This document shows, piece by piece, positions 1 through 10,229 of a stretch of DNA of 11,931 bases (position 1 is its first letter; every line of letters begins with the position of its first letter). Below the pieces are notes generated by a model that had not been told where the DNA came from, did not search any database, and saw only the letters and a program-made list of their open reading frames with translations. Source of the stretch: a virus (lineage: Duplodnaviria > Heunggongvirae > Uroviricota > Caudoviricetes); IMG/VR virus record IMGVR_UViG_2529292834_000013; one strand, written 5' to 3'. Made by a program: the position numbers and the translations under genes.

Positions 1-892
<892 letters not shown>

Positions 893-906
893 CTTATTGA
901 TTTAAA

Positions 907-952
907 TGGTGCCGATAATAGGAGTCGAACCTACGACCTTCGCATTACGAAT
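907..952 (-). other. 3' 46 nt of a tRNA-Thr(CGU) gene (thrW-like), including anticodon loop, T-arm and CCA end; att-site remnant, not a functional tRNA
   Basis: Reverse complement of 907-952 reads TTCGTAATGCGAAGGTCGTAGGTTCGACTCCTATTATCGGCACCA: anticodon CGT in a loop, T-stem GTAGG/CCTAT around TTCGACT, acceptor 3' strand and CCA. Sequence beyond nt 952 does not continue as D-arm or acceptor 5' strand. Confidence 0.65.
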
Positions 953-1031
953 TATAAGAATCCGCTTCTAATTCAAAGCATTACCCCATCAACACTGCGC
1001 TCACACGTCCCACCACATCAAAACATGTAAA

Positions 1032-1071
1032 GCCTTGCAAGCCATTGCGAGGCTTTATGTGTCTCAGTTTT
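1032..1071. terminator. Candidate hairpin with T-rich flanks on both strands (possible bidirectional terminator)
   Basis: GCCTTGCAA (1032-1040), loop GCCA, TTGCGAGGC (1045-1053): 9-bp stem with one G-U pair, followed by TTTATGTGTCTCAGTTTTGT; on the other strand the stem is followed by TTTACATGTTTT. Weak. Confidence 0.25.
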
Positions 1072-1335
1072 GTCCCACCTTTTATTACGACTTGCATAGC
1101 CAATGAAGATAAACGTGACGACAAACGGCGCAGCAATCTTCCTTTCTTTCACACTTTCCCAACCCAGCATGTATACTTTTCTGCCATAACTAAAGTGAAT
1201 GCCTGTTATGAGCAACAAACAGGCATTAGCGCCGCTAGCATATTAGCTACCATTCGACTGCCACACTTAAGATTGATTTCTTAAGTATAACCCGGTTTCT
1301 AATACTACTTATATATTCAGCTCTGAGATTCATTT

Positions 1336-4300
1336 TTATCTCGTAAAGCTAGTTTTATGACTTCCTGTTAGCTGACTGTCTTCATAATAAAATGCTCCAC
1401 TAAACTCCTGTCGACCATAATGATGACTTGATATGAGTGAGCCCCCTATAACGCCCTTTTCACCTAATAATGTCCAAACGATTTCAAAACCATTGTCCCT
1501 TAACATTGTTAAAAATGGTTCTTTTTTAACAAGTAGATGCGGCTTTGAAGCATATACAGCTTCAGCTGCAAAGCAAACCATAGTTCCATTTTCATCATTG
1601 AAGCTACCCTCTACTTCCCCACTTTTTAATCCCATCTTTTCAAAGATTAAGTTACTAGGCTTCAAAAAATTCAAAGTTTCTATTTTTGATTTGTCGAACT
1701 CCTCTTCCCACAAATAATTAATCGAAGTGACACTAACATCAGCTATCTTAGCTCCAGACTCCCGGTCTGTTACCGAAGTCCAGTCAGATCCACCATAATA
1801 ATCTGATTTAAAAGACTTAAATGCTTCGGACCAATAGTACTCCCTATTAAATAATTGGTATCTATCAGTACATTCCGGCATCCACCTGCCCATAAAGTCT
1901 TGAGCTATTGCCCAACATCTAAAATTTTCAAATTCTTCAACTTTAACGATATAACTTCTGATCTGATACCAAACCTCTTTTCGTGGGTGCCCCCAATCAT
2001 CGTTTCCAATAATTTTTGGTTCTTTCCATGATGGATGACTTTCTAATACTATCCATTCATCACCATTATCATCTTTAACTTCAATAAAAGCATATGAATT
2101 AGTTATAGTAGTAGAACTTTTAACCCAGTCTTCATTAGAGCAAGTCCAATCAAACACTTCATCATTAAGCCACCACATTTCTTTATTGCTTATTTTTTTC
2201 GTTCCAGTTTCTTTAAGTAAGATAGTGGGATCTATATCTCTTACGTAAGGCTCCCATGGCCCTTGGTATGGATTTTCCTTTCGTTCGTCACCATAACCTT
2301 CAAAACGAGTAAAATTATCGGCTAGCCTTGCCATGTATTCATAATAAGCAATCCATTGGGATTTTTTACCAATCCGTTCTTGGAATGCCTCTCTACGTCC
2401 ACGTCCAGTTCCTATTTGTTGGTCAAAATTACCATGCTTCTCCGGATCCCAACCAAGCTCTATAACACGATTGAATATAAATTGTTGAGCTAGTCGAAGA
2501 TCAAAGTGTTTATCAGTTTCCAGCAGATTATTATTATGATCCAGGTATGGCTCTATTTCATTTTCAAACTCACTTAACAGATCGTATGACAATGAATTCT
2601 TAAATAATTTCTTGCTCGCCTTTATTTCTTCCTGTGCTTTTCTACCGACCACACGACCAAATTTAATTCCTTCGCATTTATCATCATAAATGAAAGGATC
2701 TGTGGCATCATACAAGTCTTTTTGTTGATCAGTTAGTTTACATTTGAAAGTTTTAAAAACTTGCTTACGGTCAACAGGGGTTTCATTAAACTTGCAACCA
2801 GACCAATCAGAATGATTATAATTTGTTCCAATAGTATATCGTGAAAAGTCACCATCTTCCATAATAGAGCTCCAGAGTTCCCGATAAGGTTCTTTATCAT
2901 AAAGGGACTCTAGTTCCTCTTTTGAAGGAATCTTGTCAGGCCAAATGCTGTTGTAGGGTGGTCTAGTCTTGGATAATTCAATGCTTTCAAGTTCCAATCC
3001 AAGATGATTAGCAAATTCAATAATCTCTCTAGCATAATCTCTAAGTAATATATTTGGATACACATACTTAGAACAAAATACCTTTTGGTAAACAGTTTCG
3101 GCTAAATATTTTAGTTCTTTAATATTATCAGTTCGCAATGTACAGCCTAATGCAACTGCAAATATTCTTTCCCAAACGTAAGGATCATTTACACCATAAA
3201 ACTTATCAATTATTTTTCTCAATACAGGAATTCTTGGCTCGAGTAAACTCACTAAAGCCTTAGTTGAGCAATCTCGAAGTTCTCGGTTACTAGAAGTTAA
3301 AAACCAGCATAAACTAGTTGCAACTAGCTCGATTGACTCATCCGAAACAAAGCTTTTATCTGTTCTGGCCCATGCCCAATCGATTAGATGCCTAAATGCT
3401 GAGTCTTCACTATATTTATATTTAAGTTCTGTAGTCCAAAACGAATCTCGATTTGCCAAAGAATAATCTTTTAGCCAATCATGCAAGAAATTAGCATTAA
3501 AGGGATGGCCAACTAAACCTGAAATAGAGATCACTGCCTCGAGGAAATGATCAAAACTATCTTTAAATTTAAAAACATGTTCATTGATGAAAGGTCTAAT
3601 TTTTTCGAAATAAATAGCCTTAATATCGCGCCATATCAAGCTATCAATAAAGGCTTCTAGTAATTTAAGATTATTGCTGAACTCCGGCAGAAATTCATAA
3701 AGCTCTTTTTCATACCTTTCTGGCAATTGAATAGACAACGCCTCTACTATTCCCGATTTTATATAAAAATCACATTCATCATGAAAATATTTTTTCAGAC
3801 GACCATCAGGCTTAAATTCACTTTCGATATTTTCAACATCATTTAATAAAAAATTAACAGTTAAATGATCATCAAACCTTTCAAAAGCCACATAAACTAC
3901 TTCCTCAGTAGAATTATCATCATTTCTCACTATGCCTTTAGTCAATAATCCTTCGTCAATCAAGGCGCTGAGGAAGGTTTTATCAGCAACATAATCATTA
4001 ACTACAGATTGAACCACTGAGTGAGCATCTTTAAGTGAAATACTATTACGACCAATCTCTAATTTGAATTTTATGATTTCATTGAGAGCATCTTTAACAA
4101 GAGGAAAACTGGGATCGAATGCATATTTTTTTGGCGATGCTAATGATTTATTTACCCCTTCAACTAAAAAGTTAAAAATATTTGAAATCCCATTAAATCC
4201 AACAGGCACTTTGGTTAAACCATTTTTCTTAATGCCTTCACACAATAACTTAAGAAATAGAGGATTTTTAAACTCTGGATTAAGGTTAGGAGATGAAGGC

Positions 4301-5790
4301 CTCTCAATATTGTAATAATCATAAAATAGACTAACCGCTTCCAACTCAACGTTCTGGAATCCAATATGTTCATGAATTTCAAAATTATTTCGCACAACAT
4401 TCTCATGTGAAATTGTTACATTTCTATATGTTGTTCTGACTGACATTATCAGACCAAGCCATTCAAAGCATCTGATTTCATCGACAAAACTGTTAATATT
4501 GTCATTCCAGAATTTATTTCCATTACCTTCATTAATAGCATCAATAAAAACTAAGACTCTTTTTCCTGTTTTTTTGCCATATAAATTCAGTTTTTCTAGG
4601 AATTCACGAGAAGTGATTTTAAGCTGTAATCTCTTGAAGATTTGTGACCATGGAGATTCATCTGAAGTAAGTTGTTGCCCTAGTATGAGTAGTGAAGGAT
4701 ACCCAGAAGCAATTCGATTTTTAATCACATCAGCCAGTAAATGAGACTTACCAATTCCTGCTTTTCCTTCGAGAAGTAAGAATGGGTTGTTAGCCAACTT
4801 CACTGTTGTTGAATTAATGAATATACGTAATTCATTGCACGCATAGTCAAATTCCCGAAGCATTCGCAGAGTAGATGAATACTTATCACTGTAATGCTTG
4901 GTTTCACCTACTTGCTCTGACTTTTCTCGGAGTTCCCACAATATTGATACCGCTCCGCCAATAGCTGTCTGGCAGCTAGAAACATAGTTATTAAATTTAT
5001 TTATAGGGATTTCATCTAATTTAGAAAAATTAATCTCCTGATATATATCAGAAATTTCTTTTAAGGACTGGTTTATTTCAAATAATTCTGAGGAAATTAC
5101 ATCGCAACTATGTAATTTCTTTCCAGCGACCAGAAAGCTATCTATATGCGAATAAAATATTTTAGAAAAATCATTAGTTCTACCGAGGCCATCAAATATC
5201 TCTGCTATTTCTAGCTTTACGTTGAGTTCGGGTGTGTATCGACCTCCCAAGTCAGCTATTGCTTGACTATTTTTTTCATTTAACCAATCATCACTTAAGT
5301 GAAAAGTTAGTTTCTCATCTATAGACCGTAAAATAAGTTTGACTTGAATGAGCTCTTCATTAATATCGAATATTTTTTCTTTATACGTTTCTTCGATATG
5401 TAGCTTTTTTAACTTCGAACAATTATTGATTTTTAATGATAACATCCCATAAAAAAGGCTGAGTTGTTGTTGAGTTGGGGGAGTGACGCTTGGATATTCT
5501 TTGAACTTGTCTAATAACATCTCTTTGTCAGGGAACTCTTTAAAAAGGATGTACTCATTCAACATCTCAAACAATGGTTTAGAATGATAAAATGGAATTG
5601 CTCCACTTTCTACTGGATATGTTTCTTCAAACTCAATTGCCGTCTCTTCAATTAGTTGATATAATCTATCCACATATTTTTCTGTGGGGAATAATGCTTT
5701 CTTAATCCAACTATATCCTTCTTGAGAAATGAATTGATCAATAAGTTTAGTTGCTACATAAGTTGCCACTGTAATTGATATGGGTTCCAT
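1336..5790 (-). CDS. Large (1484 aa) STAND-class P-loop NTPase with unassigned ~330-aa N-terminal domain and ~1000-aa C-terminal region; candidate Avs/bNACHT-like antiviral sensor
   Basis: Single uninterrupted 4455-nt ORF. Walker A LLLEGKAGIGKSHLL (about aa 340-355), Walker B KRVLVFIDAINEG (about aa 410-422, D-[GA]-x-[DN]-E form), and a downstream hhhTxR-like LIMSVRTT (about aa 447-454). Shine-Dalgarno GGGAGAAG sits 6 nt upstream of the ATG. Visibly more AT-rich than flanking prophage DNA (not computed). Confidence 0.85.
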   Translation of the reverse strand: MEPISITVATYVATKLIDQFISQEGYSWIKKALFPTEKYVDRLYQLIEETAIEFEETYPVESGAIPFYHSKPLFEMLNEYILFKEFPDKEMLLDKFKEYPSVTPPTQQQLSLFYGMLSLKINNCSKLKKLHIEETYKEKIFDINEELIQVKLILRSIDEKLTFHLSDDWLNEKNSQAIADLGGRYTPELNVKLEIAEIFDGLGRTNDFSKIFYSHIDSFLVAGKKLHSCDVISSELFEINQSLKEISDIYQEINFSKLDEIPINKFNNYVSSCQTAIGGAVSILWELREKSEQVGETKHYSDKYSSTLRMLREFDYACNELRIFINSTTVKLANNPFLLLEGKAGIGKSHLLADVIKNRIASGYPSLLILGQQLTSDESPWSQIFKRLQLKITSREFLEKLNLYGKKTGKRVLVFIDAINEGNGNKFWNDNINSFVDEIRCFEWLGLIMSVRTTYRNVTISHENVVRNNFEIHEHIGFQNVELEAVSLFYDYYNIERPSSPNLNPEFKNPLFLKLLCEGIKKNGLTKVPVGFNGISNIFNFLVEGVNKSLASPKKYAFDPSFPLVKDALNEIIKFKLEIGRNSISLKDAHSVVQSVVNDYVADKTFLSALIDEGLLTKGIVRNDDNSTEEVVYVAFERFDDHLTVNFLLNDVENIESEFKPDGRLKKYFHDECDFYIKSGIVEALSIQLPERYEKELYEFLPEFSNNLKLLEAFIDSLIWRDIKAIYFEKIRPFINEHVFKFKDSFDHFLEAVISISGLVGHPFNANFLHDWLKDYSLANRDSFWTTELKYKYSEDSAFRHLIDWAWARTDKSFVSDESIELVATSLCWFLTSSNRELRDCSTKALVSLLEPRIPVLRKIIDKFYGVNDPYVWERIFAVALGCTLRTDNIKELKYLAETVYQKVFCSKYVYPNILLRDYAREIIEFANHLGLELESIELSKTRPPYNSIWPDKIPSKEELESLYDKEPYRELWSSIMEDGDFSRYTIGTNYNHSDWSGCKFNETPVDRKQVFKTFKCKLTDQQKDLYDATDPFIYDDKCEGIKFGRVVGRKAQEEIKASKKLFKNSLSYDLLSEFENEIEPYLDHNNNLLETDKHFDLRLAQQFIFNRVIELGWDPEKHGNFDQQIGTGRGRREAFQERIGKKSQWIAYYEYMARLADNFTRFEGYGDERKENPYQGPWEPYVRDIDPTILLKETGTKKISNKEMWWLNDEVFDWTCSNEDWVKSSTTITNSYAFIEVKDDNGDEWIVLESHPSWKEPKIIGNDDWGHPRKEVWYQIRSYIVKVEEFENFRCWAIAQDFMGRWMPECTDRYQLFNREYYWSEAFKSFKSDYYGGSDWTSVTDRESGAKIADVSVTSINYLWEEEFDKSKIETLNFLKPSNLIFEKMGLKSGEVEGSFNDENGTMVCFAAEAVYASKPHLLVKKEPFLTMLRDNGFEIVWTLLGEKGVIGGSLISSHHYGRQEFSGAFYYEDSQLTGSHKTSFTR

Positions 5791-5804: not shown

Positions 5805-6312
5805 AACAATTAAATTTTTACCAAGCGTTTATGCTTTCCAATAATTATTACATCTCACCGTAAAACATATTTATATGGTTTTAAACCTATCTGTAAATCT
5901 TGACACCTTGGCAAGAACCTAATCCTACATTTTAATATCAATCTATATAATATCGCCAGCGTCATAATAATCGGGCTTGTCATAGTTAAGTATTCGCCTC
6001 CGATATCCCAATGAGATAAGTAAGTCATAAGTGTTATAAATGAAAAGGTTACATTTTTCAAAGAGTTATTATGATGGAATATTATTCAAAACGCAATGTA
6101 GCTGAAACGAGTCTGAGTTTAACATCCGCTCCTAGTACATAGTAGTCCTAGGGACAGTGGCGTAAAGTCATAGATGGCCGGTGGGAGGTGATGGAAATCC
6201 TCTCATGCAAAAAATACATAAAATCGATAACGGCTGGAAATCATTCAATACTCGCACTATCGAAAGTTCACCAGCCAACCGCGCACAATCTTGCATACGA
6301 CATGCTACGGTT

Positions 6313-6867
6313 TCATTTATCTCCGACCGGAAACTTCTTATACAGTGTCGATATACCAACATCATAGATGATCGCCACCTTCTGGCGAGGAACGCCTGAT
6401 GCAATTAATCGCCCGGCCTGCGCCCATTGTTCTGGTGTAAGTTTGGGACGACGTCCCCCAATTCGTCCCTGTGCGCGAGCAGCTTCCAGTCCAGCTTTTG
6501 TTCGTTCAACAATCAGTTCTCGTTCCATTTCAGCCAGGGCACCCATCACATGAAAGAAAAAACGCCCCATCGGTGTGCTGGTATCAATAGCATCCGTCAG
6601 GCTGCGAAAATTAACGCCACGTTCGCGCAACTCCTCAACCAGAATGACCAGATGCCGCATACTACGCCCCAGCCGATCCAGTTTCCAGACCACCAGAGTG
6701 TCACCTGCCGATAATGTCCTGAGCAGTTTTTTCAGTCCCGGTCTTTCGGACTTCGTACCGCTTATCTTGTCTTCAAAAATCAGTTCACATCCTACACAGT
6801 TCAACGCATTACGTTGTAGATCGGTGTTCTGGTCATTTGTTGATACGCGAACATAGCCAATAAGCAT
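6313..6867 (-). CDS. pin: Serine recombinase, DNA invertase of the Pin/Gin/Hin/Cin family (184 aa, apparently intact)
   Basis: Starts MLIGYVRVSTNDQNTDLQRNAL (catalytic Ser in VRVSTNDQ), has DTLVVWKLDRLGRSM and MGRFFFHVMGALAEMERELI, and ends with the HTH ...VAIIYDVGISTLYKKFPVGDK. Very close to e14 Pin / Mu Gin as I recall them. The ORF-track N-terminal extension (MASFLLLPGGST) is rejected in favour of the canonical MLIGY start at 6867. Confidence 0.9.
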   Translation of the reverse strand: MLIGYVRVSTNDQNTDLQRNALNCVGCELIFEDKISGTKSERPGLKKLLRTLSAGDTLVVWKLDRLGRSMRHLVILVEELRERGVNFRSLTDAIDTSTPMGRFFFHVMGALAEMERELIVERTKAGLEAARAQGRIGGRRPKLTPEQWAQAGRLIASGVPRQKVAIIYDVGISTLYKKFPVGDK

Positions 6868-6893
6868 GGTAGATCCCCCAGGTAAAAGCAGGA

Positions 6894-7391
6894 ATGATGC
6901 CATTTGCTCGTTATTTCTGCATTTTCATAAACCTTGGTTTGGGAGAAGGTGCTCCAGCTATTGGCGTTCCGTTCTTCTGGCCGTCCGCTGCAATGCCAAA
7001 TACTGTAATCGACAGCTGGTCCAGTATGGTGTTTTTGAAGTTCAACGGCGCGAAATTCTCTGCCACTGATTATCCTGTGCTGGCGAAAGTGTTTCCTTCG
7101 CTGGTATTACCTGAAGCCCGCGGTGATTTCATTCGTATCTGGGATGACGGGCGAGGTGCAGACGGTGGTCGCGAATTATTAAGCTGGCAGGCAGCTACAA
7201 ACTTTTCTCAGTTTGCCGGGAATATAGGCGAAGGGGCGGGACACGCAATTAACTTTCATGATGGCATCGCCGGAAATCAGCCAGGATTTTCACGATTTAA
7301 TTTCACCAGTAACTCTGTGGGTGATGGTGTGAATTTTGTTGCTGTCAGACCGCGAAATATTGCATTTAACTTTCTGGTGAGGGCTAAATAA
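6894..7391 (+). CDS. Phage tail-fibre protein, C-terminal variable (receptor-binding) domain, variant A; lacks a constant N-terminal shaft
   Basis: ORF contains GVPFFWPS...YPVLAKVFPSLVLPEARGDFIRIWDDGRGADGGR, the motif set of Mu S / e14 Stf-type fibre C-termini. Its stop overlaps the downstream tfa start (TAATG at 7389-7393). The first ~19 codons (MMPFARYFCIFIN...) lie inside the inverted repeat; the true translational start is uncertain. Confidence 0.65.
   Translation: MMPFARYFCIFINLGLGEGAPAIGVPFFWPSAAMPNTVIDSWSSMVFLKFNGAKFSATDYPVLAKVFPSLVLPEARGDFIRIWDDGRGADGGRELLSWQAATNFSQFAGNIGEGAGHAINFHDGIAGNQPGFSRFNFTSNSVGDGVNFVAVRPRNIAFNFLVRAK
6922..6947. other. gix/hix/pix-like 26-bp invertase crossover site (left)
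   Basis: TTTTCATAAACC-TT-GGTTTGGGAGAA: two 12-bp inverted half-sites around a 2-bp core, matching the TTnnnnnAAACC-NN-GGTTTnnnnnAA pattern of Gin/Hin/Pin sites. Confidence 0.6.
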
Positions 7392-7984
7392 TGAAACCTG
7401 TTTTTGATGAAAATGGGCTGGCTACAGTGCCGGGCGATATGCGTTGTTTTTATTATGATGCTGAAACATCTGAGTATACGGGCTGGTCTGATGAATATAT
7501 TAATACTGGCGTAAGTATGCCCGCCTGTTCCACTGGTATTGACCCTGGCGAAAACATTCCGGGAAGAGTGGCAGTATTTACAGGTAAGGGATGGCGCCAT
7601 GAAGAAGACCATCGCAATGAGACTGTTTACTTAATCGAAAATGGCGCAGCTGTTACAGTGGATTATATCGGTGCCATCAAAGACGGTTATGTCACGATTT
7701 CACCGTTAACGCCATACGATAAATGGGATGGTGAGAAATGGGTGACAGACACTGAGGCACAACACAGTGCCGCAGTAGACGCGGCAGAAGCACAGCGCCA
7801 GTCACTGATTGATGCAGCAATGGCTTCCATTAGTCTGATTCAGCTGAAATTACAGGCCGGACGGAAACTGACTCAGGCAGAAACAACCCGACTTAACGCC
7901 GTGCTGGATTACATTGACGCGGTGACGGCAACAGATACCAGCACCGCGCCGGATATCATCTGGCCTGAACTGCCGGAGGCGTAG
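7391..7984 (+). CDS. Tail-fibre assembly protein (Tfa/U-like), variant A
   Basis: 197 aa, translationally coupled to the fibre domain upstream; C-terminal DTSTAPDIIWPELP motif shared with Tfa chaperones. Confidence 0.8.
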   Translation: MKPVFDENGLATVPGDMRCFYYDAETSEYTGWSDEYINTGVSMPACSTGIDPGENIPGRVAVFTGKGWRHEEDHRNETVYLIENGAAVTVDYIGAIKDGYVTISPLTPYDKWDGEKWVTDTEAQHSAAVDAAEAQRQSLIDAAMASISLIQLKLQAGRKLTQAETTRLNAVLDYIDAVTATDTSTAPDIIWPELPEA

Positions 7985-8384
7985 GCCATTCAATATCGGG
8001 TGCTGTTGACGTATCAACACGCATCAGCAGCACACGGTATTTCTTCCATTGGGTGAGAGTTGTAGCTTCTTCATCAGTTGCGATATCAGCATCAACAGCA
8101 TCCTGACGCCAGGATATTTCACTGTCAGCTTTTTCCCGTAATTGGGATTTTTTAACTTCAGCAATAGCTATTAATTCCTTTTTGGTCGGCTGAGGAATAT
8201 CTATCAGTGCTGGTTTTCCATTCAGTGTTCCAATCTGTTTTCCTGGTGGAATATCCATAAATAACTTCTTATGTTCTTCCTCACTGACTATTACACCATC
8301 ATCAGGCCACAGACCTGATGCCTCAAATTTTTCTTTCTCCGATATGGGGAAAAAGCCATTTGCTTTAGCGCTCCATACGTACAT
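7956..8384 (-). CDS. Tail-fibre assembly protein (Tfa-like), variant B
   Basis: 142 aa; N-terminus MYVWSAKANGFFP and C-terminus WKKYRVLLMRVDTSTAPDIEWP are typical of e14/lambdoid Tfa proteins. Convergent with variant A, with 29-bp 3' overlap. Confidence 0.8.
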   Translation of the reverse strand: MYVWSAKANGFFPISEKEKFEASGLWPDDGVIVSEEEHKKLFMDIPPGKQIGTLNGKPALIDIPQPTKKELIAIAEVKKSQLREKADSEISWRQDAVDADIATDEEATTLTQWKKYRVLLMRVDTSTAPDIEWPTPPAVQAR

Positions 8385-8385
8385 A

Positions 8386-8721
8386 TCAATACCCCACCGC
8401 TATAATGTCCACATTAAATCCCCCGGGACCTGCCTGCCAGATGCTGGCCCCTGTTAATGATTTTGTTTGATGAACAACCGCCACATTTGCTGGCGATTGT
8501 GTTTCAGTTGTTACAGTACCGATATCATTCCAGTTAATTGAGATGGAATAGTTCGTTGTTGTAAACGACCGGGGGAAAGTTATGTGTCTTACATTGGTGC
8601 CGACAGGAAATCCAAGATAAACACGCTGAATTATCATTCCTCCAGGTAACATAACCCAGTTAGCACCTTCTCCAAAACCAACATTTATGAAAATGCAGAA
8701 ATAACGAGCAAATGGCATCAT
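8386..8721 (-). CDS. Phage tail-fibre protein, alternative C-terminal variable domain, variant B; lacks a constant N-terminal shaft
   Basis: Begins with the same repeat-encoded peptide MMPFARYFCIFINVGFGEGA as variant A, then diverges completely; sits directly upstream of and coupled to tfa variant B. Identity rests on position and architecture, not a recognised motif. Confidence 0.55.
   Translation of the reverse strand: MMPFARYFCIFINVGFGEGANWVMLPGGMIIQRVYLGFPVGTNVRHITFPRSFTTTNYSISINWNDIGTVTTETQSPANVAVVHQTKSLTGASIWQAGPGGFNVDIIAVGY
8668..8693. other. gix/hix/pix-like invertase crossover site (right), one half-site degenerate
   Basis: TTCTCCAAAACC-AA-CATTTATGAAAA on the + strand: the left half fits the consensus; the other half reads AAATG where AAACC is expected. 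Confidence 0.5.
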
Positions 8722-8747
8722 TCCTGCTTTTACCTGGGGGATCTACC

Positions 8748-9266
8748 ATGCTTATTGGCTATGTTCGCGTATCAACAAATGACCAGAACACCGATCTACA
8801 ACGTAATGCGTTGAACTGTGCAGGATGCGAGCTGATTTTTGAAGACAAGATAAGCGGTACAAAGTCCGAAAGGCTGGGACTGAAAAAACTGCTCAGGACA
8901 TTATCGGCAGGTGACACTCTGGTTGTCTGGAAGCTGGATCGGCTGGGGCGTAGTATGCGGCATCTGGTCATTCTGGTTGAGGAGTTGCGCGAACGTGGCG
9001 TTAATTTTCGCAGCCTGACGGATGCTATTGATACCAGCACGCCGATGGGGCGTTTTTTCTTTCATGTGATGGGTGCCCTGGCTGAAATGGAACGAGAACT
9101 GATTGTTGAACGAACAAAAGCTGGACTGGAAGCTGCTCGCGCACAGGGACGAATTGGTGGACGTCGTCCCAAACTTACACCAGAACAATGGGCACAAGCC
9201 GGACGATTAATTGCATCAGGAGTTCCTCGCCAGAAGGTGGCGATCATTTATGATGTTGGCGTATAG
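8748..9266 (+). CDS. pin: Second copy of the Pin-type DNA invertase, inverted relative to the first; frameshifted near the 3' end so the HTH recognition helix is missing (172 aa; probably defective or a pseudogene)
   Basis: About 98% identical to the left copy through ...QKVAIIYDVG, then V-stop instead of ISTLYKKFPVGDK. Substitutions P->L (KSERLGLKK) and V->A (NCAGCE). SD-like GGGGGA about 8 nt upstream of ATG 8748. Confidence 0.8.
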   Translation: MLIGYVRVSTNDQNTDLQRNALNCAGCELIFEDKISGTKSERLGLKKLLRTLSAGDTLVVWKLDRLGRSMRHLVILVEELRERGVNFRSLTDAIDTSTPMGRFFFHVMGALAEMERELIVERTKAGLEAARAQGRIGGRRPKLTPEQWAQAGRLIASGVPRQKVAIIYDVGV

Positions 9267-9359
9267 TCTTTGTATAAGAAGTTTCCAGTCGGAGATAAAT
9301 GAAACCGTAGCACGTCGTATGCAAGATCGTGCTGCGGTTTATGCTTATCACTTAAAGAC

Positions 9360-10229
<870 letters not shown>

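Follow-up and report, generated by a model that had tools for sequence, protein, structure and literature searches.

An e14-type Pin cassette between two invertase genes: unequal crossover sites that probably still work, at a probable prophage fusion

The window, a viral stretch of 11,931 nucleotides, carries two inverted crossover sites around a 1.7-kb tail-fibre segment. We give a probability of roughly 0.8 to the reading that these are working sites of an e14-type Pin system (Din-family serine invertase), that the inequality of their external halves is harmless to orientation, and that the pin/segment/pin arrangement stems from a prophage fusion. The right site would be the pin-proximal site of the resident prophage with one extra base change, and in the left site the inner half-site of the segment would be joined to a pin-proximal half-site from a second, related prophage. 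Bound to both sites, Pin dimers would cleave the central AA/TT and exchange the inner halves, so that the segment would still invert. The features of the locus are listed in Table 1.

Table 1. Features of the double-pin locus in window coordinates.
Feature	Position	Strand	Remarks
Donor prophage right-end spacer, copy of the thrW 3' end, integrase 3' end	838..1078	.	inverted relative to thrW
Avs2 (AVAST type 2) defence gene	1336..5790	-	RefSeq annotation; no match in Pfam
Left arm of 671-bp inverted repeat	6283..6953	.	pin_D, upstream region and site; 96% complementary, 27 differences
pin_D	6313..6867	-	intact 184-aa serine DNA invertase; Pfam Resolvase and full HTH_7
Leader (MMPFARYFCIFIN..) fused to tail-fibre C-terminal variant Sv	6894..7391	+	StfE-like; 84/153 residues identical to e14 StfE
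Left crossover site	6922..6947	.	TTTTCATAAACC TT GGTTTGGGAGAA; central dinucleotide 6934-6935
Tail-fibre assembly gene paired with Sv	7391..7984	+	Pfam Caudo_TAP, 1.4e-27
Tail-fibre assembly gene paired with Sv'	7956..8384	-	Pfam Caudo_TAP, 6.6e-33
Same arm-encoded leader fused to Sv'	8386..8721	-	Pfam Gp53-like_C; analogous to e14 StfE2
Right arm of 671-bp inverted repeat	8662..9332	.	site, upstream region and pin_R
Right crossover site	8668..8693	.	TTCTCCAAAACC AA CATTTATGAAAA; central dinucleotide 8680-8681
Gene-conversion patch	8732..8811	.	nine right-arm positions with left-arm sequence; this strain only
pin_R	8748..9266	+	resident invertase, premature stop at 172 aa; HTH_7 positions 1-34 of 45
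LEM-3-like GIY-YIG nuclease gene	9360..10184	-	cargo downstream of pin_R, as in intact resident-prophage relatives

A relaxed Din-site pattern (TTYTCNNAAANNWWNNTTTNNGARAA, at most one mismatch) matches the window twice, at 6922-6947 and 8668-8693, against 0.01 matches expected from shuffled sequences. Both 26-bp sites fit the dix consensus (PMC3241671), lie in inverted orientation and have matching cores (TT and AA); they form the inner ends of a 671-bp inverted repeat built from two pin genes, one intact and one truncated. The outer half of the left site (6922-6933) belongs to the pin_D arm and its inner half (6936-6947) to the segment. In total, the sites differ at three positions: one in the inner halves (6941 G vs 8674 T) and two in the outer halves, where CC at 6932-6933 faces TG (the complement of CA at 8682-8683) on the side near the invertase. 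Half-site positions 6-4 are AAA in all four halves, and positions 3-2 are CC, CC, CC, and TG. The sequence-only reading had thus described an unequal pair of Gin/Hin/Pin-type sites correctly, in sequence and coordinates, including AAATG in place of AAACC.

Its further description of the right site as degenerate does not hold. The pin-proximal site of K-12 e14, listed as pixR (PMC3241671, Table 3), is TTCTCCCAAACC AA CGTTTATGAAAA, and the right site departs from it by a G-to-A change at 8683 and at the variable position 7. Its outer half (8682-8693) is that of pixR apart from the change at 8683, which is synonymous in the reading frame crossing the site. The right site is a native e14-type pixR with one G-to-A change, not degenerate by the standard of the family. 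Comparison with characterised sites upholds the inequality but not an off-norm right site, each site standing one base away from the e14 pin-proximal norm, AAACG. Likewise, the idea of a hybrid site left by past recombination was right in that a foreign junction was created at one site, but that site is the left, consensus-looking one.

The dinucleotide next to the core is not invariant among natural sites. In 122 pin-proximal sites from 120 viral contigs it is CG in 113, AT in 4, CA in 3 and GG in 2; CG is found in the single-pin relatives of pin_D, and CA also turns up in three further lineages, of which one (L095) has an intact pin. Our literature search found no direct mutational data for positions 2-3 with Hin or Pin, and the profile of Gin was used instead. 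At half-site positions 3-2, the Gin catalytic domain accepts only CC, CG, GG and TG (PMC3616721), a profile recorded with symmetric substitutions and a hyperactive Gin-zinc-finger fusion, hence for Gin and not Pin. The base-contacting residues of Gin (I120, T123, L127, I136, and G137) correspond to V, T, L, I and G in pin_D. Compared with this profile, positions 3-2 and 6-4 of the window sites appear compatible with the catalytic domain, and CC, CG and TG would all lie inside the range that the enzyme family tolerates. The TG half-site may slow switching several-fold, in both directions, and the difference between AAACC and AAATG would do no more than this. The variant half-site lies outside the segment, is found whichever way the segment points, and can therefore favour neither orientation.

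Natural isolates bear on the same point. The locus occurs in 18 near-identical complete ETEC genomes, of which 11 are collinear with the window (E1648, E1654, E1739 and E2386 called from BLAST alone), six have the segment inverted and one is rearranged; E1620, which has a shortened, chimeric segment, IS100 in pin_R and a gap-ridden assembly, was excluded from the orientation count. In all six inverted genomes the outer halves remain with their own pin gene and the inner-half marker relocates, so that the half-sites are exchanged. An in-silico flip of the segment about the centre of the sites leaves the 11 aligned sequences without a single difference at the arm and site markers. The strand exchange of the six genomes maps to 6934-6940 / 8675-8681, 7 bp that hold the central dinucleotide, and these natural alleles thereby display the exchange at the central dinucleotide with reciprocal half-site re-assortment that is characteristic of the Din family.

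Each SNP-defined subgroup (3612C, 6795T, and the rest) holds both orientations, and strains E54 and E8 share an island in opposite orientation. At least three flips must therefore have taken place; the count draws on two structural markers and two shared SNPs, at a locus with hardly any variation. Judged from these related strains, the segment between the sites appears still to flip cleanly. The asymmetry had been proposed to bias or lock the orientation of the cassette, and the presence of both orientations with clean crossover had been named beforehand as the outcome that would speak against this. That outcome is seen in near-identical natural isolates (11 vs 6), and the variant half-site is external.

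Flipping of the segment is probably the work of pin_D. Its product shares an identity of 94.6% with e14 PinE and of 76.8% with Gin, matches Pfam Resolvase (1.5e-51) and HTH_7 (positions 1-43 of 45), and aligns without gaps over residues 1-181 to the Gin structures 3uj3/4m6f; it has both the catalytic Ser9 domain and the C-terminal HTH of Din-family invertases. Because pin_R is truncated at residue 172, ending in ..DVGV* versus ..DVGISTLYKKFPVGDK, it lacks the HTH recognition helix and is probably inactive. All 13 relatives whose pin_R is uninterrupted are annotated with the same allele (WP_000904963.1). Pin homologues elsewhere in the genome might also act on the sites. In Din-family systems the 5' part of the invertase gene contains a recombinational enhancer bound by Fis. 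Over the first 250 nt, pin_D is 93.6% and pin_R 96% identical in nucleotides to e14 pinE.

Outward of the sites, the arms are identical over 137 bp (6795-6931 / 8684-8820). The 13 related genomes show nine further arm differences at 8732-8811, and the perfect identity beside the sites stems from a recent gene conversion between the two pin copies, found in the window strain only, whose tract spans 80-137 bp and ends short of the site. In light of these nine extra differences, the apparent concentration of divergence at the crossover, to which attention had been drawn, is peculiar to this strain. The clustering is also statistically unremarkable, with a Poisson P of ∼0.09 for three differences within the 26-bp site, given 27 over the whole 671 bp.

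The segment holds two alternative tail-fibre C-termini, each with an assembly gene (Caudo_TAP twice, Gp53-like_C once), as in a host-range switch. No constant N-terminal tail-fibre part lies outside it, whereas intact relatives have one. As the second pin gene occupies the place of the constant part, the cassette is not a working host-range switch, and since both leader fusions, of 111 and 165 aa, are encoded in either orientation, nothing is turned on or off. RefSeq treats the reading frame of the Sv fusion as a pseudogene missing its N terminus. Our scan of 6600-9000 for promoters and terminators gave one promoter-like match, fewer than shuffled sequences gave, and is uninformative on expression of the leader reading frames.

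The flanks differ in their cargo; in the ETEC genomes, the cassette is located between Avs2 and the GIY-YIG nuclease gene. Intact relatives of the resident prophage have the order baseplate, constant tail-fibre part, site, segment, site, pin, GIY-YIG, AraC, and their homology to the window gives out inside the left site, at window 6929 (query position 1130). Avs2 is the cargo downstream of pin_D in the right end of the donor prophage; in strain 26561, it lies at a prophage right end beside the attachment core, in opposite orientation relative to pao. In the window, the attachment core (906-952) is a 47-nt copy of the thrW 3' end, reversed relative to thrW, and the region around it is one arm of a 241-bp inverted repeat whose other arm lies just past the right end of the window.

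The best account of the pin/segment/pin structure is that two tandem thrW prophages became fused head to head through their right ends. We infer that the fusion was brought about by an inversion with an end-point at the invertible cassette or within it, and that the remainder was later deleted. IS66 was considered as the cause of the prophage-body deletion and rejected, as FDAARGOS_1077 has the RusA'/integrase junction without IS66. A segment bracketed by two invertase genes is unusual, and a non-exhaustive literature search for such cassettes found nothing relevant. The second double-pin locus that we came across (L015) shows 100% arm identity for 1010 nt or more, up to where the sequence ends; it may be an assembly artefact and is therefore not counted as an independent example.

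Three other accounts of the present-day locus were weighed. That the diverged half-site cripples the right site, leaving a cassette that is biased, locked in one orientation or a dead relic, could draw on the truncation of pin_R, on the conservation of the G at position 3 from the core in hix, gix, cix, pix, mix, and bix sites (PMC3241671), and on the rejection of 12 of 16 dinucleotides at positions 3-2 by Gin (PMC3616721). TG, however, is among the four that Gin accepts, an intact pin_D is adjacent, and a half-site present in both states can cause no bias. Locking is already contradicted by the opposite orientation in 6 of 18 genomes, with exact half-site exchange in at least three independent events, a proportion equal to the 33% reported for the canonical e14 segment in 562 E. 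coli genomes (PMC12529663). We regard a crippled site as very unlikely. The orientation differences could instead reflect RecA-dependent homologous recombination between the 671-bp pin repeats, which at 95-96% identity are good substrates and do contain a conversion tract. Yet none of the arm markers, 6932-6933 / 8682-8683 included, has left its flank in any of the six inverted genomes; the sole marker to change sides lies 6-7 bp inside the centre. The crossover is thus confined to the 7 bp mapped above, ∼1% of the repeat; homologous exchange would have had a mere 12-19 bp of homology on the inner side and would have had to recur there in at least three events, which makes it highly improbable. 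Least credible of all is an assembly artefact from reads of mixed orientation. Assemblies do break off or go astray at invertible segments: a contig of the same locus in IMG/VR (L085) ends exactly at the centre of the right site, the segment of E1620 looks chimeric, and the arms of L015 are identical. Here, by contrast, the arms differ at 27-36 positions, their flanks are Avs2 and GIY-YIG, the two pin alleles differ with one truncated, and 17 complete genomes from different laboratories and platforms have the same structure.

How the fusion came about is less firmly settled. It has a substantial, though not the larger, chance of having arisen by homologous recombination between the 1.7-kb segments of the tandem prophages in opposite flip states, rather than by Pin acting on non-allelic sites, in which case the left site would be native to the donor in its entirety and not a hybrid. 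The segments of related prophages are 96-97% identical, the final architecture is the same, and this route is as workable as a Pin-mediated fusion. Both origin models predict the homology break at 6929, and nothing speaks directly against the homologous route; as later flips re-assort the inner halves, the original junction is no longer readable.

The closest known system is Pin with the P-segment of the cryptic prophage e14 of E. coli K-12 (pixL, pixR, pinE, stfP/tfaP/tfaE/stfE), whose invertase is the one 94.6% identical to pin_D. Shared with it are 26-bp sites with the same inner half and AA core (the right site being pixR plus one base change), a segment of two convergent pairs of tail-fibre C-terminus and assembly gene, a pin-side leader reading frame (MPFA.YF.IFIN) that crosses the site, and both orientations in nature. 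In contrast to e14, the window lacks the constant tail-fibre part and the outer half of pixL and has a second, inverted pin with its pin-proximal half-site instead; its resident pin is truncated, its variable parts have no more than 34-55% identity with the e14 ones, and its cargo is Avs2 and a GIY-YIG nuclease versus mcrA. The ungapped resemblance to Gin of phage Mu extends to the arm that reads positions 3-2, where four of five residues are identical in pin_D and the fifth is changed from I to V, and CC and TG of the window and CG of e14 are all in the set tolerated by Gin; gix, however, has a GA core and symmetric GG/CC beside it. hixR of the Salmonella Hin system is a natural, fully functional site that combines a strongly off-consensus half (TTTTCCTTTTGG) with a consensus half (PMC3241671, Table 3) and so provides a precedent that unequal half-sites need not disable a Din site, although its deviation is far larger and it controls a promoter switch, not tail-fibre ends.

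Recombinase-activated phage inhibition by PinQ and StfE2 (Kirigo et al. 2025, PMC12529663) likewise involves an e14-type segment in a cryptic prophage, a leader-plus-variable chimera on the pin side, invertases that act in trans, and recombinase genes that adjoin defence genes. K-12 StfE2 is made only after inversion and blocks adsorption of phage T2 (PMC12529663), whereas the window encodes both leader fusions in either orientation. It is conceivable, if doubtful, that the double-pin cassette is a constitutive form of such a defence, with StfE-like and StfE2-like proteins always encoded whichever way the segment lies; if so, the double-pin arrangement would be more than debris.

As originally posed, the finding of a degenerate site matters very little; the differences next to the core of the Pin sites would fall inside the tolerance of the enzyme, and an inequality of external half-sites has no power to bias an inversion switch. 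Comparing orientations across closely related genomes can serve as a stand-in for an inversion assay. The locus appears to be a clear natural case of a rearrangement that joined two prophage right ends at an invertible cassette, and the resulting switch would still flip though it changes nothing any more.

A 671-bp inverted repeat with 96% complementary arms encloses the ∼1.7-kb invertible segment, and its inner ends are the two crossover sites (see table). Each arm carries a pin-type serine invertase gene directed away from the segment. The intact left gene, pin_D, shows 94.6% identity to PinE of the cryptic K-12 prophage e14 and 76.8% to Gin. The truncated right gene, pin_R, carries a P43L change and a premature stop (..YDVGV*); every one of the 13 relatives whose gene is uninterrupted has this same allele annotated, and IS100 splits the copy in strain E1620. 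The segment holds two convergent pairs, each consisting of a tail-fibre C-terminal variant (Sv or Sv′) and its own assembly gene, and a constant tail-fibre part is absent. A second double-pin cassette, from another pin lineage (88% amino acid identity), lies on contig L015 (IMGVR_UViG_2695420821_000010; 4216-5225 / 6934-7943). Its spacing is 1708 nt, as in the window, and its arms are 100% identical and reach the sequence end; it reflects either a recent duplication of independent origin or an artefact of assembly.

Features of the double-invertase locus (window coordinates unless stated otherwise)
Feature	Position	Strand	Remarks
IS100 3′ end	1-240		100% match to E1620 copy
241-bp repeat	838-1078		integrase 3′ end, thrW-derived attachment core, spacer
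thrW 3′-end copy	906-952		47 nt, inverted relative to thrW of the same chromosome
Avs2	1336-5790		AVAST type 2
Inverted-repeat arms	6283-6953 / 8662-9332
pin_D	6313-6867	(-)	intact, 184 aa; neighbour Avs2
Leader ORFs	6894-6935 and 8680-8721		antisense to pin upstream regions, crossing the site
Left site	6922-6947		TTTTCATAAACC TT GGTTTGGGAGAA
Right site	8668-8693		TTCTCCAAAACC AA CATTTATGAAAA
Converted patch	8732-8811		right arm bears left-arm sequence
pin_R	8748-9266	(+)	stop after residue 172, without HTH recognition helix; neighbours GIY-YIG nuclease and AraC regulator genes
GIY-YIG nuclease gene	9360-10184		LEM-3-like
241-bp repeat, second copy	L001 12269-12507		just beyond the right end of the window

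A relaxed Din-site pattern matches the 11.9-kb window twice, exactly at the two sites (0.01 matches expected from shuffles). The sequence-only reading described these accurately as an unequal pair: three half-sites end core-ward in AAACC, against AAATG in the one adjoining the right invertase. One further difference separates the inner halves, on the segment side (6941 G vs 8674 T). In the arm-started leader frame that crosses the site, the right-hand change is synonymous (AAC to AAT, Asn), and the other inter-arm difference is a Val/Leu change. The same reading had placed arm divergence mainly at the crossover region, which does not hold for other strains: their arms differ at scattered positions, with no exceptional divergence at the site. 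Over 11.7 kb, 13 positions separate the window from strain E54, and nine of them fall within the right-arm patch. All 13 further genomes whose sequence was read over this patch lack it. Gene conversion over a tract of 80-137 bp, ending before the site was reached, produced the patch.

The locus was found in 18 complete ETEC genomes, of which 11 are collinear with the window (four by BLAST only), six carry the segment inverted, and one (E1620) is rearranged. Inversion in the six is relative to unchanged flanks, with Avs2 on one side and GIY-YIG plus pao on the other. In all six, the site adjoining pin_D reads TTTTCATAAACC TT GGTTTTGGAGAA and that adjoining pin_R reads TTCTCCCAAACC AA CATTTATGAAAA; the outer halves, on the pin-arm side, are fixed and the inner halves are exchanged. 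After in-silico flipping at the site centers, arm and site markers showed no differences across 11 aligned sequences. Therefore, exchange occurred within 6934-6940 / 8675-8681, central dinucleotide included. Homologous recombination between the arms would not hit these few nucleotides time after time. The locus is otherwise near-invariant, and every subgroup holds both orientations: 3612C (inverted, 2014EL, FDAARGOS_1077, and TW10598; collinear, B2C), 6795T (254D-1; 360D-1 and FORC_031), and genomes sharing a 13.5-kb island at thrW (E8; E54). To give this distribution, the segment must have flipped independently no fewer than three times. The canonical e14 segment, by comparison, is reportedly inverted in 33% of 562 E. 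coli genomes (PMC12529663).

The proposal that site asymmetry biases or locks the cassette is thus contradicted by the 11:6 distribution with clean half-site exchange. Moreover, neither orientation can be favored, because the variant half-site is external in both states. In E1620 (L143 6123-8130), the two segment ends share Sv-type sequence and one inner half-site variant, the segment is ∼190 bp short, IS100 lies within pin_R, and the assembly has 70 gap openings there. Either the rearrangement is genuine, or reads of opposite orientation were assembled into a chimera; the latter would suggest a mixed culture. A viral-database contig of the same locus, L085 (IMGVR_UViG_2537561933_000009), ends exactly at the right-site center (window 8681), an assembly break of the kind expected when reads hold both orientations.

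The window sites are of the known Pin/pix type. The K-12 e14 pin-proximal site is TTCTCCCAAACC AA CGTTTATGAAAA and its partner inside stfP is TTCTCCCAAACC AA GGTTTTCGAGAG (pixR and pixL, respectively; PMC3241671 Table 3), so that departure from GG next to the core is already present in the prototype. Among the matches listed, 122 pin-proximal sites on 120 viral contigs have core-adjacent CG in 113 cases, AT in four, CA in three, and GG in two. CG also occurs in the closest single-pin relatives of pin_D, and CA in at least three other lineages, one with an intact invertase. Either window site is therefore one base off the family norm (CG to GG on the left, CG to CA on the right). At half-site positions 3-2, the Gin catalytic domain, profiled as a hyperactive zinc-finger fusion of Gin rather than Pin, tolerates solely CC, CG, GG, and TG (Gaj et al., PMC3616721); three of the four window half-sites carry CC, the fourth carries TG, and e14 carries CG. 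The five Gin residues contacting these positions are kept in pin_D save for I120V, and hixR, with a far more deviant half-site, is functional (PMC3241671). Given the external geometry, the tolerance of Gin, the kept contacts, and the hixR precedent, the inequality appears harmless, although the TG half-site may moderately affect the rate of Pin inversion.

The double-invertase layout is unusual, a variant that arose by rearrangement; a targeted, non-exhaustive literature search found no description of it. Intact resident-type prophages at thrW run from baseplate through constant tail-fibre part, site, segment, site, pin, GIY-YIG, AraC, and spacer to the attachment core. Strain 26561 carries Avs2 at the right end of a different prophage, oppositely oriented to the window relative to pao and followed by the same spacer and core beside pao; the tail fibre preceding this Avs2 is non-invertible. 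These orders, the inverted thrW core, and a second, direct spacer-core copy just right of the window indicate two prophage right ends, from which we infer a head-to-head fusion at the cassette. Exactly the observed arrangement would result from one inversion ending in non-allelic pix sites of two tandem prophages, and likewise from one ending inside their homologous segments; the prophage bodies would have been deleted after the fusion. Homology with the resident type stops within the left site. Thus, the suggestion that past recombination left a hybrid site survives in modified form: a foreign junction exists, but at the left site, not the right.

The two 241-bp repeats (94% identical, inverted) bracket the block that extends from Avs2 to an IS fragment on the right-hand side of the AraC gene. 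This entire 11.2-kb block is inverted in FDAARGOS_1077 (L134) compared with its close relative 2014EL-1346-6 (L005), so that the locus harbors two nested inversion systems. Avs2 directly follows one pin gene and the GIY-YIG gene the other; each sits in the variable cargo slot of thrW prophages between invertase and attachment site. The IS100 remnant meets a truncated integrase gene at nucleotide 241, where E54 has IS66; the same junction thus holds two different insertion sequences, by strain. The IS100 junction places the window strain outside the 18 complete genomes.

Both arms encode the leader MMPFARYFCIFIN.., which matches the StfE start of e14 and is kept at the start of both StfE and StfE2. 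Therefore, leader-Sv (165 amino acids) and leader-Sv′ (111 amino acids) are encoded in either orientation, and the sole difference between the states is the leader form, INLG or INVG, on each protein. The switch still turns, but with no effect detectable in sequence any more. In K-12 e14, by contrast, the StfE2 chimera is made only after inversion, and StfE2 blocks T2 adsorption (PMC12529663). Because of this activity, one may speculate that the leader-Sv and leader-Sv′ proteins could act as a constitutive defence beside Avs2.
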